A DNA stretch of 64,000 nt. Source: Escherichia phage AV125. The stretch is taken from the sequence record OR352955.1, one strand, 5' to 3'. Below the pieces are notes generated by a model. It saw only the letters and a list, made by a program, of their open reading frames with translations, did not search any database and had not been told where the DNA came from. The position numbers and the translations under genes are program-made. Below, piece by piece: positions 16,589-37,559 of this stretch (position 1 is its first letter; each line of letters begins with the position of its first letter).

Positions 16589-17215
16589 ATGGGAATCCCT
16601 TTTGACTTAAAACTTGGGCCAAACAACGACCTCATTATGGATGATGGGGATTTGGTCCTCACTACAACCAGAACAGAAATTGCAGCACAAACTCTTGGGA
16701 TAACTCTGAACACGTATCGTGGGGAGTGGTTTTTAAATACTAACTTCGGTGTTCCTTACTTACAAGAGATTATTGGTGTTGCTAGAAAGAAAGATATTGT
16801 AGACAGAATATTTTTAGCAGAGATTGCCAAAAACGTTTACATAGATACAATAAACAGTTATAAATCTGCTTATGACATGGATCAACGTTATTACTCAATG
16901 ACAGTTATGGTCACAGTTGGAGCAGATACAGTAACATCTATATTCAATACTCAACCTTCTGAAGAGTTTATTTACCCTGAAGCTGGTGAAGACAATGCAG
17001 CGATCACTTGTGAAGCTTACAGTATTGTTGAGAATTCGAATAGACTTTATCGCTTTATCAACTTTGTTGGTTTGCCACGTGATACCTACTCTACTTGGTG
17101 GAATGAATGGTCTACAGAGTCAGCAGTGGAAAGAATCATGGTTAACGAAAAAGGTGATGCATTAGCTACAAACAATAATTTCGGTATAACAGCTATGACA
17201 GGAGTAGAAGAGTAA
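16589..17215 (+). CDS. Baseplate wedge protein (gp25/W-like, putative)
   Basis: 208-aa ORF directly after the spike gene, as for W/gp25-like proteins; no diagnostic motif. Confidence 0.3.
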   Translation: MGIPFDLKLGPNNDLIMDDGDLVLTTTRTEIAAQTLGITLNTYRGEWFLNTNFGVPYLQEIIGVARKKDIVDRIFLAEIAKNVYIDTINSYKSAYDMDQRYYSMTVMVTVGADTVTSIFNTQPSEEFIYPEAGEDNAAITCEAYSIVENSNRLYRFINFVGLPRDTYSTWWNEWSTESAVERIMVNEKGDALATNNNFGITAMTGVEE

Positions 17216-17688
17216 TGGCAGATTTAACTACGATCAAAGTTTCTGATCTTACACAAACAACCTCTGTGTCTGATACAGATTTCTTTGTAACAGATCAGGC
17301 TGGAATAACAAAGAAAACTTCTTTGAAAGTGCTGTTGAGTGGTGCAGGGGTAACTAGAAACCGTCTGAATGCACGGGGAACAGTAACTAGCACATTGGCA
17401 TTAGATATTAGTTCAGCAGAATATTTTTCAGCAACTTTATCTTCTGAAACGTGCACAATTAGTTTTACTAATATTCCAGTAGCAACAAATGCAGTTTTAA
17501 ACTTTACTTTAGCTTTGCGTCAAGGAAGTGGTGCAAATAAAGTCGTATGGCCTTCTTCTGTAAAATGGAGTTTTGGTCGTTCCCCAGTTTTGAGTTATCG
17601 TCAAGGTGCAACAGACACTTTTGAGTTTATCAGTTATGATAATGGTGCAACTTGGACAGGTAGCTTAGTTTTAGCAGGAGTTATTTAA
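17215..17688 (+). CDS. Small tail protein carrying a fiber N-terminal anchor-like motif
   Basis: N-terminus VSDTDFFVTDQAGITKKTSLKVL resembles the N-termini of the 22735 tailspike and the 45-aa ORF at 25189. Confidence 0.3.
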   Translation: MADLTTIKVSDLTQTTSVSDTDFFVTDQAGITKKTSLKVLLSGAGVTRNRLNARGTVTSTLALDISSAEYFSATLSSETCTISFTNIPVATNAVLNFTLALRQGSGANKVVWPSSVKWSFGRSPVLSYRQGATDTFEFISYDNGATWTGSLVLAGVI

Positions 17689-20564
17689 TGTCAAGAGTTA
17701 AGCACAATATTGACAACACGTTTCAGTTGATTGAAGGGTTGGTTCAGTTTTTGGAAAGAAATACTGGGCTTACCATAGATCCTACGGTTCAGCATTACAT
17801 TATCAACCCACAAAACGTATTGGCGAACAACAGACACTTTATTAACTGGACAGCGCAGGAAGGGCAACCAAACGGTGACGCTACTACCGAAGGTCAATCT
17901 GTGCTTATCACTGGTTTTGCTTATGCATATTTGGCTACAGGGGATAAAAAATATCTTGAATCTGCCGAGAAGTATTGGCAAGCCTATATAGATCACTTCT
18001 TCGGGGGCCAACCTATTCCTGATCCTCCGGCTAAGTATCGTCCCAACTGGATCATCAATGGTAAAGAACCACGTTTAGCACATTACCCTCTCACAGATGA
18101 TGGGTATCCTACGCACGGTGGGTTCAAAGGTAGCATGATGACTTGGATTAACGGAAGGACTGTTATTCCTAAAGGTGCACCGCATTGGGGAGAATACTTA
18201 GATAAAGCTTGGTTTGCTTTCAATGGTAATCTTGGTTGGAACTCCGTTAACGCAACAGTTTATGCAACTAACCCAGATGGTTCAACTAACTGGAAAGAAT
18301 ATGGAGATCAGTGGGACGTTGAATGGATTATAGATCGTCTAGGACGTAAAGTTGATTGGGATGGTAACATTTTATCTGCAGGGCACAGCTTCGCAGAATA
18401 TGGAACAGTGCAACTTAAAAATGCTTCTGTGAACGGTGATTATAAATTCAACTACGCTACATGCAACCCTGTAGAACACGGTGGATATCTGCTTAAGCGT
18501 AATGAGATGTGGCATAACCGTCCTGTAAACGTTCCGGTAGAGTTAGGCTATCAAGATAATGCTTCCGATGCTGAAACGTGGTGGTGTGATGCAAACTACT
18601 TGATGTATCAGATCACAGGAGAGAGAAAATACTGGCTTTGCTGGCAATCTTCTTTATTGTTGTGTCAAGACTACTCAAACATCGATATGTTTGATAAATT
18701 CTTCCGTAGATCTACGACAGCAATAATTCCTTTTACAGATGGTATCTCGTATGATTACTCATACCCATCTACAGCAATACCTAAATATTCTCGTGACGAA
18801 TTAGGATATACAGTAATTCGCCAAGATGTTTCAGCACAAACAACTCTAGAACAACAGGCAGTTTGGTTCAGAGTGGATCAGAATTCAAAACTGCGTATTG
18901 AGTTTCAAGGTGTAGATGATGCAGGGGAAGGTGTTCTTTTCCGTCCAGAGTTAGAATTAAGCAAGACTAAGAGTGAAACAGACACAGTGACATATCGTTG
19001 TGGCTTACCTCTTGGTGCAGCTAATATGACTAAGATGGATATACCTTTATCTAGTTTTATGCGCACCGAACCTCCTGGAGGTGGTGTATATATTATTGCT
19101 GAACCTAGAATCATTGTTGACTGGGGAAGCAATACTGTGATACAATATAAATATGCAACTGGTATTGCTGGGACAAATAGTGATCAGATAGTTTCTGCTA
19201 ATATGGATTCAGATGGTGGTTTTACTATTGGATTTTGGTTAACACCAACTAAAACAGCCAATTTAAAATCTATTACCTATCGTTCATACGCAGATGATTT
19301 TAACATCACTATTACGGATTCCGCAGGTTGGAGATGGTGGGCCATGTTAGAAAAAACAAATTCTGCATGGGTTACTAAAGCTTTAAGTCCTGCTGATTTC
19401 AAATTAAGCACTTGGCAACCTAATCACAATGACACAGAGACAAAACCTTCGTCAATAAACCTGACTGCTGTTGATCAGATCAACATTGCATTGGATTCTG
19501 AACCTGCAAATGGCTTGACAGGGGCAATCGACTTTTATTGCGTTAACGATATCCCATCTTTGTATTCTTCAGCCGCTGGTGATGATTACACAATGTATTT
19601 CAGGGTTACAGTTTCATCTGAAAATCCTTATACAGCAAAACTTGGAGATTGTACAATACTGGACTACAAACTTGACAGTTTGAATTATACTCCAGGAATC
19701 ATTCCATTTTCCAATATTAGTGATCCTAACACAGCATTATATGACGGTTGGCGTGGTATTCCTTACCCAGGTTATCAATACCCATCCTTATATTGTTTTA
19801 AAGGGAGAGATATTGACTGGGTTCGTATGAACAACAGTATAGACTTTTTATATGATTCACAAATGTGGTTTTATAATAAGTTTGCCCCTGTGATGCCTGG
19901 GCCAATGGCACAAGCTTATGTTTGGGATCGTTGGGATGCTCATAAATACGGAAACAAGAATGAGTTCACAATGTATCATTGGAACGATAAAGCTTGGGAT
20001 GGTTATGAAGCACGAGCATTCTTCTGTGCATGTCATACAGTATACGAACTGAAACAACGAGGAGCAGAAGTTCCTGCAAAACTTTTAACAGTTTGTAAAA
20101 ACTGGATCAACTATCTGAAATGGTTCCAAGATAACAACGAAGGAAGAACACCAACAATATTTTATCCCAATGGAGAAGTGGCTGCGCCTGTAGATGACTT
20201 TACAAGTCACATGTCTGCGCTCTTTATGGCGGGATGTGCTATAATGGGGATGGCTGGATATGATTCAGAAATTCCTAACATTAGAATAGTAGCAGACCGC
20301 TGTTTTGAACTTATTCAGGAAAACTATATTGTTCTTGGTCCTAATCACGTCATGAATGGTTGTTGGAGTGCCGCTCCTAGACCAGACAGTGATAACGGAG
20401 TCTTCTTTGGCTTCCACGCTGGAGAGTTGTTACGTGGTTTTGGGTTGTATGCTTTATACAAAAAACTTAATCCCCAAAATGCATTACCTGTTTTGGATTC
20501 GAGCAATATTCCTGCACTTACTGTTTTGACAATGGCAAACATTAGTGTGGACGTTACCGAGTAA
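17688..20564 (+). CDS. Large tail/baseplate-associated protein (958 aa), possible enzymatic receptor-binding protein
   Basis: Large ORF in the tail cluster; Trp/Tyr-rich; segment ITGFAYAYLATGDKKYLESAEKYWQAY is suggestive of a glycoside-hydrolase-like helical barrel (weak). Confidence 0.3.
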   Translation: MSRVKHNIDNTFQLIEGLVQFLERNTGLTIDPTVQHYIINPQNVLANNRHFINWTAQEGQPNGDATTEGQSVLITGFAYAYLATGDKKYLESAEKYWQAYIDHFFGGQPIPDPPAKYRPNWIINGKEPRLAHYPLTDDGYPTHGGFKGSMMTWINGRTVIPKGAPHWGEYLDKAWFAFNGNLGWNSVNATVYATNPDGSTNWKEYGDQWDVEWIIDRLGRKVDWDGNILSAGHSFAEYGTVQLKNASVNGDYKFNYATCNPVEHGGYLLKRNEMWHNRPVNVPVELGYQDNASDAETWWCDANYLMYQITGERKYWLCWQSSLLLCQDYSNIDMFDKFFRRSTTAIIPFTDGISYDYSYPSTAIPKYSRDELGYTVIRQDVSAQTTLEQQAVWFRVDQNSKLRIEFQGVDDAGEGVLFRPELELSKTKSETDTVTYRCGLPLGAANMTKMDIPLSSFMRTEPPGGGVYIIAEPRIIVDWGSNTVIQYKYATGIAGTNSDQIVSANMDSDGGFTIGFWLTPTKTANLKSITYRSYADDFNITITDSAGWRWWAMLEKTNSAWVTKALSPADFKLSTWQPNHNDTETKPSSINLTAVDQINIALDSEPANGLTGAIDFYCVNDIPSLYSSAAGDDYTMYFRVTVSSENPYTAKLGDCTILDYKLDSLNYTPGIIPFSNISDPNTALYDGWRGIPYPGYQYPSLYCFKGRDIDWVRMNNSIDFLYDSQMWFYNKFAPVMPGPMAQAYVWDRWDAHKYGNKNEFTMYHWNDKAWDGYEARAFFCACHTVYELKQRGAEVPAKLLTVCKNWINYLKWFQDNNEGRTPTIFYPNGEVAAPVDDFTSHMSALFMAGCAIMGMAGYDSEIPNIRIVADRCFELIQENYIVLGPNHVMNGCWSAAPRPDSDNGVFFGFHAGELLRGFGLYALYKKLNPQNALPVLDSSNIPALTVLTMANISVDVTE

Positions 20565-20572
20565 GGGGTAAA

Positions 20573-22726
20573 ATGAAACAAGCTATATTTACTGTCACGC
20601 GAGACAAGAGAGTAAATGCGAGTTCATTTAACTACACGACTGTTGACGGAACAGCAGTCGCTGGTAGAGATTATATAGCAAAATCGGGAACACTTGTGTT
20701 CCCTGATGATGCTGATTCTGCTACCATTGTGGTTGAAGTATTTGAACGACCAAAGAACTCAATAGATCTTAACTTCTCCCTCCAAGTTTCAGGGATTAGT
20801 CAAAATAACATGATGGTTGAAACGACCATCAATTGTATTATAACTACTATCCAAGAAAACACTACTCCAATAACTTGGACTACAAAAGACGTTAAAATGT
20901 TCTCTCCTATGTATTGGACAATAGACTCTCAAGCAACGGAAAGTTGTTCTATTGTATCTCATGGAGACTCTTTTACTGCAAGATTTGTAAACAGAACAGC
21001 AGCAGGTTTGGCAGGGGTTATCTGGAGCACAGTTGACAAATATGATCACAAAGGTGTTGGGTATTTACCCCACACAGATTTAAGTTCAGAGAAACTTTGG
21101 TTTAAAATGGAAATTAGTCAAAACATGCCAGGTTTTAAAGAAGAACCTTTGGTGCCGACTTTGACTGTAACTCTCCTGGATAAAAGTGTTCATTATGTCA
21201 GTTTAGGATTCTACGCTTCAGATATTTCAGAAGATGGTAAAACAGCCACAATCAAGTTAGATTTTGGTAATATCTTTTCTGGCCCTAATAATGATATTCC
21301 TTTGGATATGAGTGCTGTAGATAATATTTTCTTCTCTTTGATTACAGCAAGGTATGAAGAAATAGAAGAGATTGTACCTATTGCCAGTCAAGAGGCTTGG
21401 TTTACTTTCACTCTTCTTGAACCTACTTCTGGTTACAGTATGATGAAAGTCAGCAACCTTGTTCAGCCTGAACATGATATTCGCATGTGCACATCTTATG
21501 ATGATATGTATAACCTGACTCCAGAGAGAGTTATTTATAATACGTATGCACTAGGTTATCGTGGAATGATTAACCATTACAACGGAATGTCTCACTATTA
21601 TGAGTTCTCATGGAACGGAACATCTTGGGCTTTAAATAGATCTGTTTTCCTGAATCCGGCTACAGAAGCTTGGCTTAACAGTTTCCATTCTATAGCTAAT
21701 GAAAATGGCTACACAATAATGAACTCTTTGAGTTTTGAGTTGATGAGCACAGTTTGTCCTGTAGAATGGGTTCAACATGATTGGAACGATGCTCTTGCAG
21801 CAACAGGTTATGAGCCGCCTAGTTATGTGTTATCTCCAACAATTGATGAAGGTATGGAATATTTGCAAAATGTTATTAACAAAATAGCATCTATTTCTCA
21901 AGCTAACAATATTCCAGTCGTCATTCAAATTGGTGAACCTTGGTGGTGGTATAATACAGCAAGTAAAATGCCTTGCATATACGATTACACTACCAAACTG
22001 GCATTCAACACAGAAACTGGCTTATTTGCACAAGATGCAGGAACAATAGATAATTATAAAACAGGAACGCCGTTTGACGAATACTATGCGTTTTTGTCTC
22101 GTAAACTAGGATTAAGAGTTACAAAGTTTGCAACAGATACTAGAGCAACTTACCCAGGAGCTAAAGTAACATTGCTTCCGTTCTTACCATCGATTATCGG
22201 CAACGGTTTGATGGAGAAAGTTAACTTTCCGTCTGATTACTACATTCCTGAAACTTTTGATTTTTACTGTTCAGAGTGTTACGACTGGCTTCTGGAAGGT
22301 AAAATGATGAAAGCATTCGATGCAATTACCATACCACGTGAAAAATTAGGTTTTGAATATTCTGATATTCACTATCTTTCAGGTTTTGTTCCAGATGCTA
22401 CTCTTGCGCCTTTGTATGGCTTCGATCCTGAATCAAACTACCGCACGTATCTTTGGAAAATGATTATAGGTAATATAGTGTTGAACGCCAATAAGTTCAA
22501 TGGGCTTACACAATATATATGGGCCTATCCTCAAATAATGCATGATTCCATCACGGTAGTTAATTCTCAATCCCAAGTTTTCTATATGGGTAACGTGCCT
22601 TTGAACGTTTATTTACAGGATATCACGCTTAAACAGGTAAATGTTGAGATTGCCACCATAAGTGGAATTACATTAGCCACTAAATCTGGAGAAGATTTAG
22701 TAACAACACAAAAATTTTATATATAG
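20573..22726 (+). CDS. Tail-associated protein with N-terminal Calx-beta-like domain
   Basis: N-terminus FTVTRDKRVNASSFNYTTVDGTAVAGRDYIAKSGTLVF matches the Calx-beta pattern (R, DG, TA.AG.DY, G.L.F); 717 aa, in the tail cluster. Confidence 0.35.
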   Translation: MKQAIFTVTRDKRVNASSFNYTTVDGTAVAGRDYIAKSGTLVFPDDADSATIVVEVFERPKNSIDLNFSLQVSGISQNNMMVETTINCIITTIQENTTPITWTTKDVKMFSPMYWTIDSQATESCSIVSHGDSFTARFVNRTAAGLAGVIWSTVDKYDHKGVGYLPHTDLSSEKLWFKMEISQNMPGFKEEPLVPTLTVTLLDKSVHYVSLGFYASDISEDGKTATIKLDFGNIFSGPNNDIPLDMSAVDNIFFSLITARYEEIEEIVPIASQEAWFTFTLLEPTSGYSMMKVSNLVQPEHDIRMCTSYDDMYNLTPERVIYNTYALGYRGMINHYNGMSHYYEFSWNGTSWALNRSVFLNPATEAWLNSFHSIANENGYTIMNSLSFELMSTVCPVEWVQHDWNDALAATGYEPPSYVLSPTIDEGMEYLQNVINKIASISQANNIPVVIQIGEPWWWYNTASKMPCIYDYTTKLAFNTETGLFAQDAGTIDNYKTGTPFDEYYAFLSRKLGLRVTKFATDTRATYPGAKVTLLPFLPSIIGNGLMEKVNFPSDYYIPETFDFYCSECYDWLLEGKMMKAFDAITIPREKLGFEYSDIHYLSGFVPDATLAPLYGFDPESNYRTYLWKMIIGNIVLNANKFNGLTQYIWAYPQIMHDSITVVNSQSQVFYMGNVPLNVYLQDITLKQVNVEIATISGITLATKSGEDLVTTQKFYI

Positions 22727-22734
22727 GAGTAAAA

Positions 22735-24930
22735 ATGTCAACTACAATTACTAATTTACCCGAAACATCAAAAGTTAATGGTTCTGATTACCTGGTTTTA
22801 GACCAAGCTGACAAGACTGTTAAAAGCACAGTTTCCAACTTTCTTACTGACACTGGGGTGGTTTTAGCCACCCAGTTGAAAGATACAGATGGAGCAGATT
22901 TAATACAATCCTCAAATGGTAATACTGTTCAGGAAGAGTTGAATAACAATCTTCTTAATGATCGTGAACTATGGCGTCGTAGTCTTGCTGAGGCAGGGTT
23001 AACTCTTGTCAACGGTAGCTTTGAAGATGGCGCTATATTAAATAATAAGACGGATGCTGTTTGGTATATTGCAGGTGGACAGTGCTATACATGGGGTGGT
23101 GCTTTCCCTAAAGCTGTTCCCGCTGACTCAACCCCTGAAACATCCGGTGGTGTTGGGCCGGGTGCGTGGGTTTTGGTGAACGCCACCACCCAGCTACCTT
23201 ATGTCACCCCTGAAATTTATGGTGCAAAGGGTGATGGCGTAACTGACGACTTGACCGCGATACAAGCGGCATTAGATTCAGGTAAAGATGTAATTTTTTC
23301 TAAAAAATATACAGTATCAGCCCGTTTAACTTTGAAAACTAATAACCAGACTCTACAATTTATTAATGGGTCTTCTTTGATGTGCAATGTACCGACAGTT
23401 ACCTTGCTGTATGGTTCTGGTGTTACAGGTGTCAAAATCTTTAATGCTCGTCTTGCCTCCAGTTCAGGTTCTACCAACACATATAATGGTTCTTGTGTTT
23501 GGTTAGATACATGCTCATATTGTTGCATTGAAGATTGTGTGTTTTCTAACTATAAAGCCTCGGCGGTATTTCTAAATAACTCAAGTTATTGTAATGTTGT
23601 GAGATGCACATTTTTGGGATCTCCGGGGGCTGCTGGTGACGTGACTATGTGGCGTTCCAATGTGGGGCACTTGATTTCTGATAACAATATGGTTTCTGGT
23701 TCAGATACTGCTATTGTTTTGCAAACAATTGATGATGGGGACCATTCTAATGCCAACAGAATAGTTAACAATACTATTGAAAATTGTACGCGGTATGGTA
23801 TAGTCGTTTATAACAATCTGGAAACAAAGACAGGGACACTCACCAATACATTGGTACAAGGGAACACCATTAAGAATATTTATGGTAATGTTCTTAATAC
23901 CACAACCCAAACATATACTTACGGATCAGGGATATACATTTTGTCTGCCGAAGGTATCAAAGTGATTGGGAATACCATAGATCTCACAAATCAAAACACC
24001 GATTCTACGACACTTTCACCAGCGTGTATTGGTGTGAACGCAACATCTGAAGCCATTATTTCCAATAATATAATTTCTCGTGGGGCTTATTATGGGATTA
24101 TGATTTCAGATGCACTACAGCAGGGGGTAGGGACTAACGCCAATTCTGAATCATTTAAACCAAATTCTACTGTCGTTGTTGCTAACAATATTATTAAAGC
24201 ATGTTCCCGTAGCGGGTTGTATATCTTTAATCATCATAATGTTAAATGTGTGGGTAATATCACTATTTCCAACACACAAAATGGGGTTCTCACAGGTGCT
24301 GATAATGCGTTATATCCAACTTTAAACAATATTGAAATTCTTTCGCACACTTCCAGAGAAAATACTATGGCTGGTCTGTCAATAACAAAATGTGATACCC
24401 CTACGATTGATGTATCAGAATGTAAGGATAATTCGGGAGATGGAATCTATTGTTCTTCAATAAATGCTGTTATCAAAGTGGGGAGCGTAATTCGGAACAA
24501 CAGAGGGATCGTGATTGCAGCTTCCGGTTGTTCAATAATGGGCGGTAGAGTCACAGGGAATACTACAGGAATATTATCTACTCTTAGTTATAAGTTGATT
24601 TCTGCTTATGTAGCTGGTAATACTACAGATTATTCTGGGGATTTCGGTCCAATTTTGTCCTACAAAGGTAACTCTACACCATCAGTCAAAGACAGAGATA
24701 CGATCATCCTGAGCGATGCCACTACCATAACCGATTTCACTGATGGTGTGTTGGGCCAGACAATTAAGATTAGGGCCACAGTTAATGGAACGGTTATTTC
24801 TCATAATTCATCCGGTATACGTCTTAAAGGGAATACCTCATTCTCTATGCAAGCTGGAGAAACATTGACGTTAACTAAATTTTACACGAACCAATGGGAT
24901 GAAATATCTAGAAAAACCGTAACCGAATAA
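22735..24930 (+). CDS. Tailspike with right-handed parallel beta-helix (pectate-lyase-like)
   Basis: N-terminal anchor motif SDYLVLDQADKTVKSTV; motif FPKAVPADSTPETSGGVGPGAWV; repeated N/G-x-I-x-N beta-helix rungs (NNTIENCTRYGIVVYNN, GNTIKNIYGN, SNNIISRGAYYGIMISD). Confidence 0.5.
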   Translation: MSTTITNLPETSKVNGSDYLVLDQADKTVKSTVSNFLTDTGVVLATQLKDTDGADLIQSSNGNTVQEELNNNLLNDRELWRRSLAEAGLTLVNGSFEDGAILNNKTDAVWYIAGGQCYTWGGAFPKAVPADSTPETSGGVGPGAWVLVNATTQLPYVTPEIYGAKGDGVTDDLTAIQAALDSGKDVIFSKKYTVSARLTLKTNNQTLQFINGSSLMCNVPTVTLLYGSGVTGVKIFNARLASSSGSTNTYNGSCVWLDTCSYCCIEDCVFSNYKASAVFLNNSSYCNVVRCTFLGSPGAAGDVTMWRSNVGHLISDNNMVSGSDTAIVLQTIDDGDHSNANRIVNNTIENCTRYGIVVYNNLETKTGTLTNTLVQGNTIKNIYGNVLNTTTQTYTYGSGIYILSAEGIKVIGNTIDLTNQNTDSTTLSPACIGVNATSEAIISNNIISRGAYYGIMISDALQQGVGTNANSESFKPNSTVVVANNIIKACSRSGLYIFNHHNVKCVGNITISNTQNGVLTGADNALYPTLNNIEILSHTSRENTMAGLSITKCDTPTIDVSECKDNSGDGIYCSSINAVIKVGSVIRNNRGIVIAASGCSIMGGRVTGNTTGILSTLSYKLISAYVAGNTTDYSGDFGPILSYKGNSTPSVKDRDTIILSDATTITDFTDGVLGQTIKIRATVNGTVISHNSSGIRLKGNTSFSMQAGETLTLTKFYTNQWDEISRKTVTE

Positions 24931-25018
24931 ATATTGATCAATAGGGGTTAAGTGCTCCTCTTCTTTTGATGCTATTTATCAAAACAGAGTATCATCACAC
25001 CGCAATGTTTCAAAAACA

Positions 25019-25047
25019 TTGACAACTTTGTGTGCACAAGTTATAAT
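25019..25047 (+). promoter_or_regulatory. Consensus sigma70 promoter (TTGACA-17-TATAAT) with palindrome across the -10
   Basis: Perfect -35 and -10 hexamers with 17-nt spacing; inverted repeat TGTGTGCA (25029-25036) / TGCACACA (25047-25054) brackets the -10 element. Confidence 0.65.
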
Positions 25048-25188
25048 GCACACACGTTAATAGATGGTTTGTGTGGCTTGCCGCACTTTACGACACAACA
25101 AGAACAAGCGACTGAGTATCATCACCCTGAAGGGGAAATCATCTCCTTCAGGTGGTGTTCAGTGCATAACGTATAAAAGGAAAAGTAA

Positions 25189-25326
25189 ATGTTAAATTAC
25201 ACCACTAGTCGCCCAACAGTAGCTATCTCAGATCTTGATAGCACTGGGGTTGTAACTTTATCAAACGATCTTGTCGTGGATCAACCTGATGCCACGAGAA
25301 AGGCCTCTTTAGCCTCTGTTCTGTAG
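25189..25326 (+). CDS. 45-aa ORF resembling a tail fiber N-terminal anchor module
   Basis: ATG at 25189 after AAAGGAAAAG; translation MLNYTTSRPTVAISDLDSTGVVTLSNDLVVDQPDATRKASLASVL shares the D-x-LVxDQxxxTxK motif with ORFs 17215 and 22735; not in the track because it is under 60 aa. Confidence 0.3.
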   Translation: MLNYTTSRPTVAISDLDSTGVVTLSNDLVVDQPDATRKASLASVL

Positions 25327-25378
25327 ACCTTGGGGAATTAGCTGTATATCGTGATTTAAAAAGTAATGAGAACGCACC

Positions 25379-27108: not shown

Positions 27109-27110
27109 AA

Positions 27111-28811: not shown

Positions 28812-29357
28812 ATGATATTTACAAACTTTAAAAAATATATTCCTGAAGATCCTGAACTAAAAGAATTGGTAGAAGCAGAGAACATTCTTTTTCTTCGTTG
28901 CGATCAAGGTTACGATTGGTATTATTTACGTAGCACAGAATTCAATAACGATAAAATGAAAGTCGTTTTTGATGATCAAAATCGTATTGTGTTTTGGAAT
29001 ACTGATCCTACCCTACTTTGCCCTGAAGATCTTTCTATAGCACAAGTAGACTTTAATATAGATACTTTTGAGGATATTAGAAACAAGGTTCTGGATTTAG
29101 AAACCTTAACTCTTAAAGATAAAGAGTATTCCCGTGAAGAGTTGATGACACAAGCTAGTGCAAAAATTCGCTCTTTACAAGAAACAGCAGTAGCACTTAT
29201 AACACCTTTACAGTATGCTAAAGATTTAGAAATGGCTACTGAAGACGAATTAGCTTATCTTAAAAATCTTCAAGTTTATGTAGTTAAACTAAATCGTGTT
29301 CCGCTTCAAAAAGACTATCCTTACGCTATAGATTGGCCTACATTACCGACAGAATAA
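28812..29357 (+). CDS. Tail fiber assembly protein (putative)
   Basis: 181-aa ORF immediately downstream of and coupled to the tail fiber gene (ATG overlaps the upstream stop). Confidence 0.4.
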   Translation: MIFTNFKKYIPEDPELKELVEAENILFLRCDQGYDWYYLRSTEFNNDKMKVVFDDQNRIVFWNTDPTLLCPEDLSIAQVDFNIDTFEDIRNKVLDLETLTLKDKEYSREELMTQASAKIRSLQETAVALITPLQYAKDLEMATEDELAYLKNLQVYVVKLNRVPLQKDYPYAIDWPTLPTE

Positions 29358-29366: not shown

Positions 29367-29702
29367 ATGGAATTTCAAGAAGCATGGGGACTTGCAAAGG
29401 ATGCAATAATCCCTTTAATAGGAGTCATCTGGTTCTTTTTCAAACAAAAAATGGATAAATTCGGCTCTGATCTTGAGGAAATGGAGGAGAAAAGTCGAGA
29501 GCTAGAGAAGAAGTTGGTCTTTGTTGAATCAACTTATGCAACTAAAGCCGAACTTACCCAGATGCTAAATCAAATTAACTCTACATTAATGGCAAATAAT
29601 AACACCCTTGAGCAAAAAATTGAAAAGATTATGGACCTCAAGAATGCGACTATCCAAATGATGCTAGATGACATAGTTAAACGTACACAGAATAAGGGGT
29701 AA
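29367..29702 (+). CDS. Small protein with N-terminal TM helix and coiled coil
   Basis: Hydrophobic segment AIIPLIGVIWFFF followed by a charged helical region. Confidence 0.3.
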   Translation: MEFQEAWGLAKDAIIPLIGVIWFFFKQKMDKFGSDLEEMEEKSRELEKKLVFVESTYATKAELTQMLNQINSTLMANNNTLEQKIEKIMDLKNATIQMMLDDIVKRTQNKG

Positions 29703-29705: not shown

Positions 29706-32700
29706 ATGGCAACATTCCCAACATATCCAGCAACGTCTCTCGAACAGGGCGTAGACCTGGTTATTTTCTCATCTAACCAACTCCATGATGTTATTAATGG
29801 AAGTGCTACAGAGAGTATTGAAACAGAATCAGGGTTGATACCAACCCTGAGAAAAGCCCTTGTTGACAACTTTTTCTTTAAAAGCCCATTGGATTGGGCG
29901 CAAGGCACAAACGAAACAGTTTTTAACCAACTTCGTTATTTCCAGAATGGAGTGTTGAGTGGTTATTACTATGCGCCTAATGCTACACTGGTAAACCCAA
30001 TTCCTATGCAAGGGACTCCAGTAGGAGATAACAACTGGGTATTGTGGGGACTGAAGACAGAACAACTAGCAACAGAAGTCACCCCTTGGGTATATTCTGG
30101 TGCAACTGGTTATGAAACAGTAATCAGTCCTCCCTACATCTTTGATAGTGCTATTGTTACAATCAATGGTGTTATTCAGGTTCTGGGAGAAGCTTTCCGC
30201 ATAGAAGATAGTAAAATCATTTTATCTGAACCTTTGGGACATGATCCTGCAACAGGACTGCCAAACAAGCTTTTTGCCTATATTGGTAAAATCGTAGCTT
30301 CCGCAGATACAGATCCTAACTTAGAAAACCGTCTTGTCAGTTTAGAAACAAAAACTGAAGAACTGACAGAAAGCATGGATAAAGTACCTTTACAAACTAT
30401 TGCTCGTAAATACGGTTTGTTGGATGATGAAGTAGCTTACGCAACAGCGGGTCAATCATTAACAGGGATTAAAGCTCTGTATGATCCAGTAGCACAATCT
30501 TCCTACACATTGCCTCCTAACATCACAGGGACTTTAACATCTTTGTCTGTTTCTGGAGTAATGACTTATTCTGGCGGATCTGTAGATCTTTCTGCATTAG
30601 CTGTTGAACGTGGACAGTTTGTTCATTTGCCTACAAGCTTTGGTAATAATGTAACTCTGACAGCTAAAAATCAGACGATTGGACGTGGTGCTGGTCGTTA
30701 TCGTTGGGCTGGAAGTTTACCAAAAAGTATTTTGGCCTCTGACACGTTAGAGACAAGTGGTGGATTAGGTCCAAACGCATGGGTTCTAACTAATACGGAA
30801 GGACTGTTAACCCCTCGTGGTGGAACATACAACGATTTATTCGATGTTGTCTACTTGTCAGAATTTGCTAACAATACAACTACCTATACCACACCAGAAG
30901 CAGCTTTCCAGGCGGCACTGTTAGCAGCAAAAGCTTCGAAAAGTAAGATTCTCGATGCTTACGGTTGCGATATGACTTTCACGACAAGCTCTTTTGATAT
31001 TCAAGGTATCACTTTGCGTGGTGGTGTGTTCCGTGGTCAACGCGACTATCGTGTGCAGAATGCTACAGTAGAAGGCACAACTTTCCGTAACTCTCGTGTT
31101 ATGTATTGGGGTGGTGCTGTGCGCATGTTCGATTGTTTGTGGGACGGTGCTCCTCGCGCAGGTCAAGTTGGTAGCTTGGTATTCCAAGGCAACCCAATAT
31201 CAGGTACTTTTGAAATTGATAATTGTACTTTTAAAAACGGGTTATATGGCATCCTTCAACAAGGGACAGGAGAACCAGTAACACGCGGTGTCTTCCGTAA
31301 CCTTACCTTCATGGACATGCAAGGTGATGCGATAGAACTGAACGTCATCAATAAACATTATGATGATGGTTGTGTGATTGAGAATATTTACCTGTCTAAT
31401 ATCGATGGGACTAACGCTCCTATTCCTCTGTCCAACTGGGGTATCGGTATCGGTGTAGCTGGTAAAGGACCATATGGTTACGGAATCCCTGATGATCAAT
31501 ATTGCAAGAATATTACAATTCGTAACGTTTTTGCAAAACGTTGCCGTCAGATTGTCCACGTAGAAGTTGGTCGTAATATTTCTATCGAAAACATTCATGG
31601 CGATCCAGATCAAACCGTATCTGTTGGGACAGGTTTGGCAACTGGCGCAGTTGTAATGTATGGAAGTAAAGATTTTACGATTGACGGTGTTTATGGAGAG
31701 CCTAAAACAGACGGTAGCACACTTGCAAGTAATATCCGTATGATTTATTTGGAGTGGGGAACTAACGCAGTTCTGGACGAAGAGGGTAATCCGGTAGTTC
31801 CGGCACAGGGTAGACCTTCAAACCCATGTTTTAACTATTCTGTTCGTAACATTCACACCAAAACTGGGCGTGTTTTTGCGGGAGTTTCCGCTGGGCCAGG
31901 TTATGAAAACAGAGTTAGCTTTGAAAATATTCGTTGCGCTGCATTGCAGTTGTTCGGTATAGCTTCTTGGCTTTCAATGTCTAACATCACCTGTAATATC
32001 TTCGATTGTGTTGGTCAACCTGAATCTGGTCCAGGAACATTTTATGATGGATTCTTCCGTAGAGAAAAATCTGTTCTTGAAATGGTTAACGTAAACTGTT
32101 ACCCAGATGGCAAGACGATGGTTACTGGTCGTCCACAGTGGAGCCGTTGCCGTTACTCGGATATTCATCGTGTCAACTGTAATGTTGAAGCTAATATGTA
32201 TACCAATATCGCAGGTGGTATTGGAGCTATTGTAGGGACAACGGGCAAAGTTTATTACTTAGAGCCTAATCCTAGTCGAAACATTGATGGAATGCATTTC
32301 CCAACAGGGAAAGAGTTTGACAAAGGTGATATGATAGTCAAAGCGGATAATACGTTCTTCCTTGTAACAACAAGTGGGGCATATATTCCAGATATCCCAG
32401 CTTTCGGTATTCGAGCTACACAGGCAGGAGATACCTTCCTGACACAGAACTTGACTCCTAACGGGACAGCAACAAATGCTTCTTGGTTGTATCATTACCC
32501 TCTGTCAGCAGGGACACGTATCCGTATTCCTGGTGCTGGTGTAGGTGGAGCAGATTTGGACACAGTTATTACTCGTGCACCTTATCAAGATAATGATACG
32601 TGGACTAACCCAGTTAAAATAGACATTGCAGATCCAATTGTAACGCCTACAAGTGCTGGAGTTAGAATTAAAACCATACCTAATGATTCCAGTAATGTTT

Positions 32701-32759
32701 CTGTAGGTAATACTGCGGTTATTCGCCCAACGCCAGTAGTAGATGTGCCAACAACCTAA
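29706..32759 (+). CDS. Tailspike/tail fiber (1017 aa) with beta-helix-like region
   Basis: Internal module RYRWAGSLPKSILASDTLETSGGLGPNAWVLTN shared with two other fiber genes; beta-helix-like repeats (ITIRNVFAKRC, ISIENIHGDP, SVRNIHTKTG); followed by a terminator. Confidence 0.5.
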   Translation: MATFPTYPATSLEQGVDLVIFSSNQLHDVINGSATESIETESGLIPTLRKALVDNFFFKSPLDWAQGTNETVFNQLRYFQNGVLSGYYYAPNATLVNPIPMQGTPVGDNNWVLWGLKTEQLATEVTPWVYSGATGYETVISPPYIFDSAIVTINGVIQVLGEAFRIEDSKIILSEPLGHDPATGLPNKLFAYIGKIVASADTDPNLENRLVSLETKTEELTESMDKVPLQTIARKYGLLDDEVAYATAGQSLTGIKALYDPVAQSSYTLPPNITGTLTSLSVSGVMTYSGGSVDLSALAVERGQFVHLPTSFGNNVTLTAKNQTIGRGAGRYRWAGSLPKSILASDTLETSGGLGPNAWVLTNTEGLLTPRGGTYNDLFDVVYLSEFANNTTTYTTPEAAFQAALLAAKASKSKILDAYGCDMTFTTSSFDIQGITLRGGVFRGQRDYRVQNATVEGTTFRNSRVMYWGGAVRMFDCLWDGAPRAGQVGSLVFQGNPISGTFEIDNCTFKNGLYGILQQGTGEPVTRGVFRNLTFMDMQGDAIELNVINKHYDDGCVIENIYLSNIDGTNAPIPLSNWGIGIGVAGKGPYGYGIPDDQYCKNITIRNVFAKRCRQIVHVEVGRNISIENIHGDPDQTVSVGTGLATGAVVMYGSKDFTIDGVYGEPKTDGSTLASNIRMIYLEWGTNAVLDEEGNPVVPAQGRPSNPCFNYSVRNIHTKTGRVFAGVSAGPGYENRVSFENIRCAALQLFGIASWLSMSNITCNIFDCVGQPESGPGTFYDGFFRREKSVLEMVNVNCYPDGKTMVTGRPQWSRCRYSDIHRVNCNVEANMYTNIAGGIGAIVGTTGKVYYLEPNPSRNIDGMHFPTGKEFDKGDMIVKADNTFFLVTTSGAYIPDIPAFGIRATQAGDTFLTQNLTPNGTATNASWLYHYPLSAGTRIRIPGAGVGGADLDTVITRAPYQDNDTWTNPVKIDIADPIVTPTSAGVRIKTIPNDSSNVSVGNTAVIRPTPVVDVPTT

Positions 32760-32820: not shown

Positions 32821-34845
32821 ATGAATTTAACAAGACCTAATAGTGCGATAGCCGATCTGGTAGAAGCTACTTATCGAAAACGTCGCAGCTTTGAGGCAGG
32901 TTTTACATTACGTAATTCCCGTGAAGTTTTGCTGTTAGCAGCAGAAGGGAATTATTACCAATGGAAAGGAACTTTTCCTAAAGTGGTTCCAGCAAACTCT
33001 ACGCCAGCCACCACAGGTGGTATTTCTTCCCTTGCATGGCAAAGTGTTGGGACCGCTGATGATATAGCAATTATCAATGCCAAGTTTACGGCAATGCAGC
33101 AACAAATTGATGATCTGTCGGAAACAATACCTGAAGCTGGTAAATCGGCTTATCAGATCGCACTTGATAATGGTTTTGTTGGAACAGAAGCACAGTGGCT
33201 TGCCTCTTTGAAAGGGGATACTGGTGCTCAACTTAATATTAAAGGATCATTAGCAAGTACTAGTGAACTACCATCCACAGGTAACGTTGCAGGGGATGGT
33301 TATATCGTAGGTGATGTAATCTACGCTTGGGATGGTTCTGTTTGGAAACTTATTTCTTCTCTTGGGCCAGAAGGTAAATCAGCTTACGAGGTATGGTTGG
33401 CAGATGGTAATACAGGATCTGTTTATGATTTCCTTACCTCTATAAAAGGTGATAAAGGCGATGTTGGTCCTACAGGGCCACAGGGAGCACCTGGTGTTAA
33501 CGCCAACGGTTTTGATTATCGTGGAGATTTGCCTTCTACAAGTAACTTACCACAACCTACCTCTGAAAACGTAAGCCAAGCTTATTCTATCAATGGTAAT
33601 CTTTATGTCTCTAATGGGACAGCTTGGGTCAACATGGGTAATATTGTTGGTCCTCAAGGTCCACAAGGCGAGGCAGGAAAAGACGGTCTAGATGGAACAG
33701 ATGGAGATGAAGGGAAATCTGCATATCAAAGTTGGCTGGATGCTGGTAATGAAGGGACAGAAGTAGATTTTATTGCCTCACTTAAAGGTCCAAAAGGAGA
33801 CAAGGGTGATCAAGGAGAGCGAGGTCCACAAGGTGAACTAGGTCCACAAGGACCAGTGGGTGCAACAGGATCAGGCTTAGAGATTATCGGGGTTCTGAAC
33901 AGCGAAGCTGAACTTCCTCCGACTGGAGAAGTAGGTGACGCATATAAAATTAATAATGATTTATATGTTTGGGTCCAAGATGCTACGGAATGGATGAATG
34001 TTGGCAGTCTTGGAGGAACATCAATTACAGCTAAAGGTCATGTTCCGAACAGTGAAGCTCTCCCTGTTTACAATAACTATGGTGATGCTTACTTAACTGA
34101 AGACACTAGTAATCTTTACATCTATACCTACGATCAAGACACCAATTCCGCATCTTTTGTTGACATGGGAAGTATTAAAGGCGACAAAGGTGAAAAAGGG
34201 GATAAAGGAGATAAGGGTGATCCTGGAACAAACGGAACCAACGGTACTGATGGGACCAACGGTAAGGACGGCGCACAGTGGTTTGTAGCAACAACTAATC
34301 CAGTCGCAGGAGACGGTGTTATCAATGATTACGCCTTCAATACTACCACTGGAGCAGTGTTTAAGAAAACAGATTCTTCTACGTGGACGCTTATAGGCAC
34401 TCTTCCTAGTATACCAGAAGCCCCTCAAGACGGCTTGACGTATGGTAGGTCTGATGGAAATTGGATCGAAATATCAGGATCAGATCCTACGGAAGCTATA
34501 ACACCAACTAGAGTTACAGCAGGTTTCATGGAACTTGAAACAACTACTGCCAACTCTGGAGCATCTTGGACTCCTTCTGGAACTTCCAATATGTATGTTG
34601 TTACAGTAACTGACGCTCTGACAGTTGGAGCATGGCCTGGTGTCACTGGCTCTACAAAACCTAAAGCGTTTTCAGCAATGATTTATTTGATTCAAGATAC
34701 AACGGGACACACGGTTACACTAGATGCGTCTTATGGAGCACTAAATGATACAGAAATAGCAACTACTGCTAACGCAGTAACAATTTTGCAATTAACGTAT
34801 CCTGGTGTGGGTGATATCGTGGACATGGTTGTTGTAACACGATAA
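32821..34845 (+). CDS. Tail fiber with collagen-like G-X-Y repeats
   Basis: Motif FPKVVPANSTPATTGG near the N-terminus; three GKSAY-x-WL-x-G-x-G repeats; several G-X-Y tracts (GPQGPQGEAGKDGLDGTDG; KGDKGEKGDKGDKGDPGTNGTNGTDGTNGKDG). Confidence 0.55.
   Translation: MNLTRPNSAIADLVEATYRKRRSFEAGFTLRNSREVLLLAAEGNYYQWKGTFPKVVPANSTPATTGGISSLAWQSVGTADDIAIINAKFTAMQQQIDDLSETIPEAGKSAYQIALDNGFVGTEAQWLASLKGDTGAQLNIKGSLASTSELPSTGNVAGDGYIVGDVIYAWDGSVWKLISSLGPEGKSAYEVWLADGNTGSVYDFLTSIKGDKGDVGPTGPQGAPGVNANGFDYRGDLPSTSNLPQPTSENVSQAYSINGNLYVSNGTAWVNMGNIVGPQGPQGEAGKDGLDGTDGDEGKSAYQSWLDAGNEGTEVDFIASLKGPKGDKGDQGERGPQGELGPQGPVGATGSGLEIIGVLNSEAELPPTGEVGDAYKINNDLYVWVQDATEWMNVGSLGGTSITAKGHVPNSEALPVYNNYGDAYLTEDTSNLYIYTYDQDTNSASFVDMGSIKGDKGEKGDKGDKGDPGTNGTNGTDGTNGKDGAQWFVATTNPVAGDGVINDYAFNTTTGAVFKKTDSSTWTLIGTLPSIPEAPQDGLTYGRSDGNWIEISGSDPTEAITPTRVTAGFMELETTTANSGASWTPSGTSNMYVVTVTDALTVGAWPGVTGSTKPKAFSAMIYLIQDTTGHTVTLDASYGALNDTEIATTANAVTILQLTYPGVGDIVDMVVVTR
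33448..34270 (+). repeat. Collagen-like G-X-Y triplet repeat region, coding
   Basis: Four interrupted G-X-Y tracts encoded within the 32821-34845 gene. Confidence 0.5.
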
Positions 34846-34849
34846 CAGA

Positions 34850-34874: not shown

Positions 34875-34886
34875 TGGAGGGTTTAA

Positions 34887-37559
34887 ATGTTTCCAATTCC
34901 AATATTTACTATTATGACCAGCACTGGTGTCGTTCCTCTGCCAGCAGGTATTGTTAAAAAAGTAATCACTTTAGATTACCCAGATAATGCTGGTAATTCT
35001 AATAGCAGTTTAGCAATTTTGCTTAATGATGGTAGATTGTTTACTCAAGGCGCAAACCTTTTTGGTGAGATTGCAGATGGAACTCGTAGTGCACGATTCA
35101 ATAATTTCCACTTAGCTTCTACTGTAGTAGCGGATGTGTTTACCGCAGATCGTTGTTTTGTTATTAAAACTAACAGTGGAGGATGGCAATATTCAGGATT
35201 GACAGCAGGATTGGTAGGATCTATAGCAGCAGGTGGTACGGACGCATGTGTAACTACTTGGACCAGCTTTCCATCTGTAATAACAGGGACTATCTCTTTA
35301 GCTAATCTTAAAGAGGTTAAGGGAGGATATAACAATACTCTCTGGTTAATGAATAGTGGTGTTCTTTATGGATCAGGTCAAAACACAGTAGGTAGTTTAG
35401 GTGCAAGTACTACTAACGAAGTTTCTACTCCTCGTCAGATAACAAGTGCAGCAGTTGCTTTTGATGCAGGTTACAACCAATGTTCTTATGTCAACAATGT
35501 GGGAACCTTGCGTGTTTGTGGAGCCAGTAAAGGTTTAGCAGGTAATAATAACACAACAACAGCTTTTGTCAATGCCAAGATATCCGCTACTGAAACAGTG
35601 TATGTCAAAGATTACATCAATACAGTTTCCCAGACAATAGTTGTAGGAGATACCTCCGGTGGCACGGGTGCAGTAAACTACTTATATGTTAGATCTAATA
35701 CAGAAACAACCTATACTAAACTGGATACCTTTGCAGCAGGTTTCTCAACATGGAAATTTCCACCAAGCCGCCACTCTTTTTTCGTTGGGATCAATAATTC
35801 CTTGTGGGCTATTGGTAAGAACTACACTGCAAACTTAGGTTTGGGGTATGATTCTGCGAGCGGAGATCCACTTCAAGTGGGAAAACCAGTTAAACCTGAA
35901 GGAGTGGGTTCCTGGGATATAAACAAGCTCACAAGCGTTCATACGCTGAATATGGATGTTACTAACCAATTAGGTTATCAAGGAACCTTTTTCGTTTATA
36001 ATGGAGATATGTATTATTCCGGTATTTGGAAAGATGGGAAAGCCTCGTATCTGTTCAATAGCGGTCTAAACTATAATAAATTCACACCAATAGCAAGCTC
36101 TGTGATTACAGGGGATGTGCTGGCAACTAGCTTAACTACAGATTCTTTAGGAATTTGTATTGTAGGTGGAACTAAACAGTTGACACATTCTGTTAGCCCA
36201 GAAGGAGGTAAACTTTTCAATATTAAATACACTTCTTCTGCCCCTGCAAACATGACAATATCATCTACTGGTTTAATGACTTTCCATGCAGAAGGTGGTT
36301 TTGATGCAGGTATGACATCCTTAAACGCTGAAGGAACAACTTTATCAGATACCTCTGGAGGATATGCTTCAACATTGAGCGTTTACACCCCTAGCTTATC
36401 TGCGATGGATGTAGGAACAACACAAACAATGGTAGCAGAAATAACGCCAACAGGAGCAGCAAGCTTACCTGGCATGGTTGTTGAGTATACAACTACAGAT
36501 CCTAGTGTTGCTACAGTAGATCCTACAACTGGTGTAATAACTGGTGTTGGTGATGGTGGTTGTAGGATTGGTTGCACAGCTACGTATCAAGGTGTTGTTA
36601 CCGCTTCCGATAGTTCTTATTTAACGGTGAATGCTGTTGCGGGAAAGGAGTTAGCTCCATCTCCGAGTAGTAGTTTAACGGTTCTAAACGGATATTTCAA
36701 CCACTCGGCAGATGGGGCAATTACGTTCCCAATTTTATCGGGTACTGTCACACCAGCTAACTTTGTAGTTAAGGTGGATGACGTTGTAATACCTTCAAAT
36801 AAAGTAATATTTAGAAATAAAGCTTTCTCTACAGTGGATAGTTATCCAGCAGGAGAATATAGACTGGCTATTGAATTTGCAAGTGCTTCAGTAGTGAATA
36901 GTGTTGATGTGTCTATGGAAGCAAATCCAAATCTTTTAGAATTATGGGGCGGCAACAGAATTGGTTATTCTACAAGCCCAGCCTCACAATTCTTAAAAGG
37001 TTGTGCTAACTTAAGACGAATAACTTCTGATTGTTTTAGTAACACATCTTACACCGGAACATCTATAAGTGGTATCTTCTCTGGCTGTACAAGTTTGACA
37101 GCTATCCCTGAAGGTTTATTCAGTGATACTTTATTTCCTTCAATGACAACAATGTCAAGCACGTTTGAAGGTTGTACATCTTTAACATCTATTCCTTCAG
37201 ATTTATTTAAGAATCTATCAAAAGTTACAAGATATTCTTACACCTTTAAAGATTGCACGTCTCTTGCAGAAGTTCCAGCAGGAATGTTTGATAATATTCC
37301 AACGAAAGTGACCTCTTTAACAGCTACATTCCAAGGTTGTTTAGCACTTACAGATTTTAATAAAATCTTTAATGACAACCCAGGGTTAACTGTTTGTGGT
37401 AAACGTGGAGCATTATCTTCTTTCTTTAGTGGATGCACAAATCTTACAGGAACAGGAACAACATTAACAAATACATTAGGCGGAGTAGCTAATAGTTACC
37501 TATTCAGGTATTGCACAAAACTTTCTGATTATAACAACATTCCTTCCAATTATAAATAA
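34887..37559 (+). CDS. Tail fiber-like protein with Ig-like (Big_2-type) and BspA-type leucine-rich repeat regions
   Basis: Ig-like segment TTDPSVATVDPTTGVITGVGDGGCRIGCTATYQGVV; C-terminal repeats of the form F-x-GCTSLT-x-IP (FSGCTSLTAIPEGLF, FEGCTSLTSIPSDLF, FKDCTSLAEVPAGMF, FQGCLALTDF); 890 aa. Confidence 0.45.
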   Translation: MFPIPIFTIMTSTGVVPLPAGIVKKVITLDYPDNAGNSNSSLAILLNDGRLFTQGANLFGEIADGTRSARFNNFHLASTVVADVFTADRCFVIKTNSGGWQYSGLTAGLVGSIAAGGTDACVTTWTSFPSVITGTISLANLKEVKGGYNNTLWLMNSGVLYGSGQNTVGSLGASTTNEVSTPRQITSAAVAFDAGYNQCSYVNNVGTLRVCGASKGLAGNNNTTTAFVNAKISATETVYVKDYINTVSQTIVVGDTSGGTGAVNYLYVRSNTETTYTKLDTFAAGFSTWKFPPSRHSFFVGINNSLWAIGKNYTANLGLGYDSASGDPLQVGKPVKPEGVGSWDINKLTSVHTLNMDVTNQLGYQGTFFVYNGDMYYSGIWKDGKASYLFNSGLNYNKFTPIASSVITGDVLATSLTTDSLGICIVGGTKQLTHSVSPEGGKLFNIKYTSSAPANMTISSTGLMTFHAEGGFDAGMTSLNAEGTTLSDTSGGYASTLSVYTPSLSAMDVGTTQTMVAEITPTGAASLPGMVVEYTTTDPSVATVDPTTGVITGVGDGGCRIGCTATYQGVVTASDSSYLTVNAVAGKELAPSPSSSLTVLNGYFNHSADGAITFPILSGTVTPANFVVKVDDVVIPSNKVIFRNKAFSTVDSYPAGEYRLAIEFASASVVNSVDVSMEANPNLLELWGGNRIGYSTSPASQFLKGCANLRRITSDCFSNTSYTGTSISGIFSGCTSLTAIPEGLFSDTLFPSMTTMSSTFEGCTSLTSIPSDLFKNLSKVTRYSYTFKDCTSLAEVPAGMFDNIPTKVTSLTATFQGCLALTDFNKIFNDNPGLTVCGKRGALSSFFSGCTNLTGTGTTLTNTLGGVANSYLFRYCTKLSDYNNIPSNYK

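Follow-up and report, generated by a model that had tools for sequence, protein, structure and literature searches.

Several distinct fibre sets have been seen together on the virion of phage phi92 using cryo-electron microscopy (cryo-EM), where the fibres attach to a platform of wedge proteins of the gp145/gp146 type (PMC13450770). Arrays of this kind have been published as a "multivalent adsorption apparatus" or a "nanosized Swiss army knife" (PMC13450770, PMC8594841, PMC10844046, PMC11414711), and three of these papers cite Schwarzer et al. (2012) for the phi92 apparatus (PMC13450770, PMC8594841, PMC10844046). In phage CBA120, the documented docking element of tailspikes TSP1 and TSP3 is the domain D1 (TD1), which binds XD3, and not the domain D2 (PMC11414711, PMC7506556), and the N-terminus of the phage phiTE long tail fibre binds wedge protein 2A and a helix of the sheath initiator (PMC11972413). 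Here, we analyze a block of host-recognition genes (positions 17215-37559) in a 64,000-nucleotide (nt) stretch of Escherichia phage AV125 (OR352955.1), hereafter the window, and in particular a peptide shared by three of its proteins, g22735, g29706 and g32821 (genes are named by their first nt). We identify this peptide as the D2 "head" domain (PF18668 in Pfam) known from tailspikes of the CBA120/G7C type, and the best explanation of the locus is probably a phi92-type block in which D2 would serve as a structural head module between diverse anchors and diverse distal bodies.

The window belongs to a Phapecoctavirus, a coliphage with a contractile tail that resembles phAPEC8 and ESCO5 and is placed in the subfamily Stephanstirmvirinae. 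A megablast search of the phage collection with 17215-37559 matched 136 phage records. In 61 of them, the match spans 80% or more of the query with an identity of 95-99%, and all those listed among the 61 are Phapecoctavirus or unclassified Escherichia, Shigella or Klebsiella phages with genomes of ~145-156 kb. Over the replication region (40000-60000), identity reaches 98.8% with Ro121c4YLVW and 98.7% with ESCO5, and the backbone of the window shows 97-99% identity to published phapecoctaviruses. Gene order, from the baseplate hub through to the last fibre gene, matches the RefSeq annotation of both ESCO5 and the Justusliebigvirus AV123, and the host-recognition genes are colinear with phi92 gp140-gp151. 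All genes of the block are 97-100% identical at the amino acid (aa) level to those of ESCO5, Ro121c4, UP17 and Mt1B1_P17, the exceptions being the spike slot and the C-terminal part of g34887.

A preliminary description of the window had counted at least six large fibre or spike genes together with a standard tail fibre and a chaperone. All of them are present as open reading frames (ORFs) on the plus strand, but two, g17688 and g20573, encode enzyme-like tail proteins and, by their fold or domain content, neither fibres nor spikes. The broader view of that description, that the block supplies a number of virion proteins for receptor binding or glycan degradation which differ in their distal domains, is supported and has already been published for this phage group; the receptor specificities of the block proteins are predicted ones throughout.

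The shared peptide is the D2 head domain

A regular expression based on the motif of the shared peptide matches at three places only in all six frames (nt 23092, 30705 and 32962), one in each of g22735, g29706 and g32821. A profile made from the three copies found nothing further in the 940 six-frame segments of the window, the next best match having an E-value of 3. The g32821 copy deviates slightly from the motif as first written, with TTGG, and with AWQ in place of AWV. On alignment, 17 of 75 columns are identical in all three copies, a similarity far above chance that bears out the sharing noticed earlier; pairwise BLASTP among them gives E-values of 1.6e-9, 6e-8 and 7e-3, and they are mutually 43-56% identical across 28-54 aa. 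Each of the three proteins exceeds the curated gathering threshold of PF18668 (Tail_spike_N), which is 25 bits: g22735 at aa 92-148 (nt 23008-23178; 63.5 bits, E = 1.9e-17), g29706 at aa 302-361 (nt 30609-30788; 37.6 bits, E = 2.3e-9) and g32821 at aa 12-77 (nt 32854-33051; 70.5 bits, E = 1.3e-19).

Comparison with CBA120 places the peptide within the head. Residues 99-157 of TSP1 align with aa 91-151 of g22735, and because this match begins beyond TSP1 D1 (residues 12-96; PMC7506556), the shared peptide corresponds to D2, the second head module of the tailspike. In g29706, the alignment extends over TSP1 residues 20-190 (aa 230-399), so that this protein has both D1 and D2, and its head matches TSP1, TSP3, TSP4 and G7C gp63.1 with E-values from 1e-24 to 1e-30. 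Both g22735 and g32821 align to D2 alone, without D1, which among the three occurs only in g29706.

The presence of three copies in one gene block and on one strand could suggest that they are mere relics of duplication within this genome, with no bearing on function or exchange. However, the low mutual identity of the copies noted above speaks against this, as does the g22735 copy, which aligns better to 8x8m, a spike of another phage (E = 2e-21 over 75 aa), than to its companions. The PF18668-type domain is also widespread in unrelated phages, being found in many PHROG families, and occurs or is missing independently of the modules that flank it. On the first two of these grounds, we rejected an origin of the copies by duplication within the genome, which we hold to be very improbable.

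The protein with the complete head, g29706 (29706..32759, plus strand; phi92 gp150 position), comprises 1017 aa, which are divided into a baseplate anchor (aa 1-196), a coil, the D1-D2 head (aa 226-372) and a catalytic domain of the gp150 type (aa 426-1000). The last of these matches phi92 gp150 (PDB 6E0V) with an E-value of 1.4e-79 and PHROG 6117 with 1e-282, and a Beta-helix signal in Pfam is weak; g29706 is predicted on these matches to be a colanic-acid-degrading spike, or colanidase. Its anchor of ~200 aa (nt 29706-30293) is of the type known from TSP4, T7 gp17 and the phiTE long fibre, and thus one spike of the block carries an N-terminal baseplate anchor domain, as in complexes of the CBA120/G7C type. 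Anchors of this type are fused to unrelated distal domains in at least 16 other proteins, including NosD/beta-helix, Gp53-like, collar and fibre-repeat bodies. The phi92-type orthologue in AV123 has 75% identity in the anchor and 33% in the catalytic domain, and lacks aa ~205-395, that is, the coil and D1-D2. Since this orthologue keeps the anchor without D1-D2, the latter appears to be an optional insert in g29706 and not an attachment element.

Immediately downstream, g32821 (32821..34845, plus strand; phi92 gp151 position) encodes a collagen-like fibre of 674 aa, in which D2 lies at the extreme N-terminus, ahead of a shaft of repeated modules with Gly-X-Y runs and of a tip like that of the phiTE long tail fibre (aa 559-671). 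Pfam Collagen is matched with an E-value of 3e-12, and the protein belongs to PHROG 15437; the counterpart of the tip (nt 34495-34833) is the C-terminal end of the phiTE fibre (9cuy_g, E = 4e-8). The repeats readable in the translation include three of the form GKSAY..L..G..G....F..SLKG, about five of the form GDxY..n..lY.W.g..W...G, and several Gly-X-Y runs. PHROG 4549 matches both g29706 and g32821, and a strong terminator-like hairpin (34848-34867) is located 3′ of g32821.

The variable spike slot

The third D2 protein, g22735 (22735..24930, plus strand), occupies the phi92 gp143 slot and consists of 731 aa: an N-terminal peptide (aa 1-54), a helical linker, D2 (aa 92-148), a right-handed beta-helix (Pfam Beta_helix, E = 2e-21) and a C-terminal domain. 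Because its distal part resembles the spikes of ~40-kb Klebsiella podophages, at ~50% identity, g22735 is probably a capsule or O-antigen depolymerase.

The alleles of this slot were compared among relatives that are otherwise 97-100% identical. In EF1-1, ZCKP1, Ro121c4 and UP17, the spike has 85-91% identity with g22735 as far as aa 148-152, where D2 ends, and is unrelated beyond this point, with the exception of one weak C-terminal match of 35% in ZCKP1. The endosialidase-type spike of ESCO5 has only aa 1-54 in common with g22735 (94% identity) and lacks D2. The N-terminal peptide is thus kept while the body is swapped, as in K1-5/SP6 and in the anchor-branch model of Klebsiella phages (PMC6872550). 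Mt1B1_P17 (locus L007, 4859-7175) has no spike-slot gene at all, its slightly shorter N4 gp64-like gene (687 aa) directly adjoining the gene for the membrane protein, and therefore the slot is dispensable. The exchangeable modules proposed in the preliminary description are thereby confirmed for the spike slot, whose allele in the window is identical to that of AV123, a member of another genus.

This identity extends over a stretch of 2,410 bp without a single mismatch to AV123 (22977..25386, plus strand), covering most of the spike gene and the downstream spacer; megablast reports 100.0% identity over 23150-25395. There are nine mismatches within 22700-22976, and in the genes on either side mismatches number 12-30 per 100 nt (a difference of ~20-25%). 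Homology to ESCO5 resumes at 25396. Accordingly, the left junction of the cassette is close to where the spike gene starts, and the right one falls in the first ~10-20 nt of the membrane-protein gene (25379..25621). Since no mismatch is found in the stretch and its flanks are divergent, the comparison points to a recent move of the whole spike gene together with the 450-bp spacer between the two genera.

The spacer (24931..25378, plus strand) contains a hairpin, a promoter-like site and an ORF of 45 codons. The terminator-like hairpin (24943-24959, plus strand) lies in the zero-mismatch stretch, and so does, just 3′ of it, a perfect 12/12 sigma-70 consensus (25019-25047, plus strand) with TTGACA and TATAAT separated by 17 nt. 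Promoter and terminator scans were not enriched over shuffles (56 vs. 52.4 and 19 vs. 14.1, respectively), and these are noted as individual sites only. The 45-codon ORF (25189-25326, plus strand) resembles the N-terminal ~40 aa of g22735 and of g17215, the first gene of the block. Alignment scores among the three N-terminal peptides are 54-66, and none of 2000 shuffles reached them; for g17215 and g22735 in particular, the score is 66, the maximum among shuffles being 55 (0 of 2000). Local alignment against shuffles is the sole basis of the link between the 45-aa ORF and the spike N-termini. Searches with tblastn against phages found this ORF in AV123 and "cardinal" only, and nothing was matched in PHROG or Pfam. 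The ORF is probably what is left of a second spike gene that was lost. The corresponding spacers of EF1-1, ZCKP1 and Ro121c4 hold, in its place, an ORF of 103 aa that resembles D1 of g29706. With its own terminator, a perfect promoter and a vestigial anchor ORF, the spike slot could be a self-contained unit, passed as a whole from one genus to another.

How the D2 proteins may be attached

The reading that we favor assigns to D2 the role of a small trimer-forming structural module, which would connect the element fixing a protein to the particle with its distal receptor-binding or enzymatic part, and whose 3′ edge would be a preferred recombination junction. The fixing elements themselves would differ from protein to protein. 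The ~200-aa baseplate anchor of the TSP4/T7 gp17/phiTE long-fibre type would hold g29706, and the N-terminal peptide of ~50 aa, present also on g17215 and on the vestigial spacer ORF, would hold g22735. With nothing upstream of D2, g32821 may dock via D2 itself, possibly on g29706. Host range would change by replacement of the spike slot and of the C-terminus of g34887.

In the preliminary description, the shared peptide had been called consistent with a common attachment module. On this view, all three proteins would plug by D2 into the same kind of socket, either on the baseplate or on a partner protein, as CBA120 TSP1/TSP3 and G7C gp63.1 do by their heads. The idea draws on real homology, as the CBA120/G7C head binds partner spikes (PMC7506556, PMC11414711, PMC6872550), and on the phi92 particle, in which fibre II is attached to the base of fibre I according to cryo-EM, so that branching exists in the subfamily. 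It is also plausible for g32821, which starts directly with D2 and carries no further element at its N-terminus. However, the docking documented in CBA120 is by D1, and g22735 and g32821 have D2 only. The anchor of g29706 lies 300 aa upstream of the peptide, and the phi92-type orthologue works without D1-D2; the separate N-terminal peptide of g22735 is conserved independently, the ESCO5 spike keeping aa 1-54 with no D2. Moreover, no socket like that of T4 gp10 is found by Pfam in any protein of the block. The claim therefore stands as a plausible one for g32821 and not for the other two, and a socket common to all three is unlikely.

The attachment of phi92 fibre II to the base of fibre I also underlies a second alternative, an anchor-branch complex in which g29706 would be anchored, its aa ~121-196 would form a docking site and g32821 would hang from it by D2, the pair being equivalent to phi92 fibres I and II. 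Models for such an arrangement are G7C gp66/gp63.1 and the KP32-type phages. In g29706, aa 121-176 resemble the regions that follow the anchor in anchored first receptor-binding proteins, although these matches are weak (E = 1e-4 to 0.16), and the phiTE long fibre unites a g29706-like N-terminus and a g32821-like C-terminus in one protein. Against the branched complex, every step of it is by analogy, no gp10-like fold is seen for aa 121-196, and a 2026 study of phi92 could not fit models of gp150/gp151 into the density of fibre II (PMC13450770). We regard the complex as a tentative proposal that is much less probable than a structural role of D2.

A single protein, the phiTE long tail fibre (PDB 9CUY), is matched at one end by the g29706 anchor and at the other by the tip of g32821, and a split of one fibre gene may have given rise to these neighboring genes. 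A more specific proposal makes them the split halves of a phiTE-type long fibre, with g29706 keeping the anchor for the wedge and sheath initiator and g32821 hanging by D2, and this we consider doubtful to about the same degree as the branched complex. If true, it would assign the two genes to the phi92-like densities described as "fibre II" and "base of fibre I", and the colanidase would sit where the phiTE long fibre is coupled to the sheath initiator.

Several points weigh against the structural reading that we favor. The contacts, the trimerization and the location on the virion are predicted ones, and no virion proteomics for a Phapecoctavirus was found among the papers searched. The AlphaFold2 (AF2) model of g29706 is unreliable past aa 196, where its predicted local distance difference test score (pLDDT) falls below 50, and this part includes D1-D2. 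A T4 gp10-like docking domain (XD, or socket) has no Pfam match in any block protein, g29706 included. The similarity of the N-terminal peptides has ~38 residues as its sole basis, and the statistics of the junctions are those of six alleles only. Finally, it is the D1-D2 head of secondary spikes that binds the partner spike in CBA120 and G7C (PMC7506556, PMC6872550), and by this analogy D2 may still have a docking role, especially in g32821.

Other genes of the block and comparison with known systems

The block opens with g17215 (17215..17688, plus strand; phi92 gp140 position), a mini-fibre of 157 aa composed of the N-terminal ~40-aa peptide common with g22735 and a C-terminal tip domain; it matches PHROG 9017, "tail fiber protein", with an E-value of 9e-68. 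It is followed by g17688 (17688..20564, plus strand; gp141 position), a conserved tail protein of 958 aa that matches PHROG 2871, "tail protein", is 99% identical in relatives and has no sequence match in Pfam or the PDB. The AF2 model of g17688 has a pLDDT of 85 and a predicted TM-score (pTM) of 0.82; its two terminal parts are helical and toroid-like, and beta-sandwiches occupy the middle. Foldseek matches to this model include the carbohydrate-binding modules CBM11 and CBM22 (probability 0.75-1.0), Cel48F, GH105 and glucuronyl C5-epimerase, all of which are weak and domain-wise with TM-scores of 0.1-0.3, and a specific enzyme family is not claimed for this reason. As far as the model goes, g17688 looks like an (alpha/alpha)-toroid fold of the kind found in carbohydrate-active enzymes, with inserted beta-sandwiches resembling carbohydrate-binding modules, and not like a fibre. 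Some of its 306 homologues are fused to NCTSP or P2 gpI domains, which suggests that g17688 might work together with g20573 at the baseplate. In the homologues P0103 and P0087, the fusion partners are NCTSP_N and TIM-barrel_NCTSP, as present in the neighboring g20573, or the P2 gpI baseplate domain.

This neighbor, g20573 (20573..22726, plus strand; gp142 position), is a protein of 717 aa with the Pfam domains Calx-beta (E = 7e-11), NCTSP_N (E = 2e-16; 60 bits) and TIM-barrel_NCTSP (E = 1e-78; 265 bits), the cut-off being 27 bits for the latter two. In the PDB, it matches 9lc0_M, Gp64, with an E-value of 4e-30 and 9lc0_I, NCTSP (gp65), with 1e-12. It is thus a homologue of phage N4 Gp64/gp65, and a conserved tail protein that probably binds or modifies glycans. 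In the BASEL papers, a deacetylase fibre like N4 Gp64 is described as conserved in the Vequintavirinae and their relatives (PMC8594841, S5F), and infection by N4 and by the Justusliebigvirus phages Bas60-62 is reported to depend on the NGR glycan (nfrA/nfrB/wecB) (PMC11990801).

Downstream of the spike slot and its spacer are the small membrane protein g25379 (25379..25621, plus strand; gp144 position; PHROG 1322, E = 2e-26) and the baseplate wedge genes g25621 and g27111 (25621..27740, plus strand; gp145 and gp146 positions; PHROG 6 and PHROG 4056). The standard tail fibre is g27750 (27750..28811, plus strand), a Mu GpS-like short tail fibre of 353 aa that corresponds to phi92 gp147, fibre III (PHROG 4465, E = 4e-108; PMC8594841, PMC13450770), and its neighbor g28812 (28812..29357, plus strand) is a GpU-like assembly chaperone corresponding to gp148 (PHROG 136, E = 3e-41; Pfam Caudo_TAP, E = 3e-13). 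A predicted lipoprotein of 111 aa, g29367 (29367..29702, plus strand), lies at the gp149 position (PHROG 15210, E = 4e-70) and precedes g29706.

The last gene of the block, g34887 (34887..37559, plus strand), encodes an extra protein without a phi92 position. Its 890 aa contain an RCC1-like beta-propeller (Pfam WD40_RLD and RCC1, both weak), a Big_2 domain (E = 2e-10) and a C-terminal region resembling leucine-rich repeats (LRR), and the protein belongs to PHROG 11922. Of the distal-domain labels in the preliminary description, beta-helix, collagen-like and Calx-beta hold in Pfam; the LRR label of g34887 is weak, as LRR_5 is matched at an E-value of 0.003, which is under the cut-off, and LRR proteins in the PDB at 1e-5 to 0.08. 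A strict LRR assignment was rejected. The first 584 aa are 97-98% identical to the Ro121c4 and UP17 alleles, and aa 585-890 (nt 36639-37556) have no detectable similarity to them; the C-terminal ~300 aa thus form a second exchangeable module of the block. Directly downstream, an ORF of 143 aa on the minus strand (37587-38018) matches PHROG 2340, endonuclease, and the endonuclease VII/HNH families. It is at the same place in Mt1B1_P17 and absent in ESCO5, and because of this distribution it looks like a mobile endonuclease.

The finding as a whole is an ordinary one: arrays of this kind have been known from phi92/phAPEC8-like phages since 2012, Pfam already lists the peptide as a domain, and dozens of deposited genomes show 97-99% identity to the window. 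The zero-mismatch stretch, the junction map and the homology of the anchor to phiTE are useful details, and none of them makes a new kind of system. The 2.4-kb stretch shows that whole spikes have been exchanged recently between Phapecoctavirus and Justusliebigvirus and that this exchange is ongoing. A domain map that separates anchors, D2 head and distal modules suggests breakpoints for host-range engineering after aa ~54 or ~150 of the spike-slot protein, which is of relevance to broad-host-range therapeutic phages. The homology of the gp150-type anchor to the resolved anchor of phiTE offers a testable assignment for fibre densities left unassigned in the 2026 cryo-EM study of phi92.

Compared with the spikes of CBA120, a Kuttervirus (TSP1-4), and of G7C (gp63.1/gp66), the block lacks detected gp10-like XD domains. 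The secondary spikes of such complexes carry an N-terminal D1 for binding to XD3, and this domain is missing from g22735 and g32821, two of the three D2 proteins here. The tsp genes of CBA120 form a cluster of four, whereas the genes here are spread around those of the baseplate wedge, and the phi92 particle differs from both models in having three separate fibre sets on the wedge according to cryo-EM. The long tail fibre of phiTE (PDB 9CUY; PMC11972413) is closer to one part of the block, as the g29706 anchor is 40% identical, in a Foldseek alignment, to the modelled phiTE N-terminus. In phiTE, however, both ends belong to one fibre of 793 aa, and here they are divided between two neighboring genes, a colanidase body and D2 domains lying in between. 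Like N4 Gp64/gp65, the latter named "non-contractile tail sheath protein", g20573 has NCTSP_N and TIM-barrel_NCTSP, but it stands in the baseplate context of a myovirus and has an added N-terminal Calx-beta domain. Unlike Justusliebigvirus, the window has the extra propeller/Ig/LRR protein g34887; this protein, "TfpM1", has been reported for Phapecoctavirus and "Wecvirus", and Justusliebigvirus is reported to lack it (PMC12695924). The closest likeness is to phi92/phAPEC8, with homologues at every position from gp140 to gp151, including the colanidase, the short fibre and its chaperone, the wedge, the collagen-like fibre, the N4 gp64-like protein and the swappable slot. The gp143-slot spike here is a beta-helix enzyme, in contrast to the endosialidase of phi92, and the colanidase differs from the phi92-type protein in its extra coil and D1-D2 insert. 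The array, the variable slot and the D2 domain have thus all been described before, and the window adds to them one combination of alleles.

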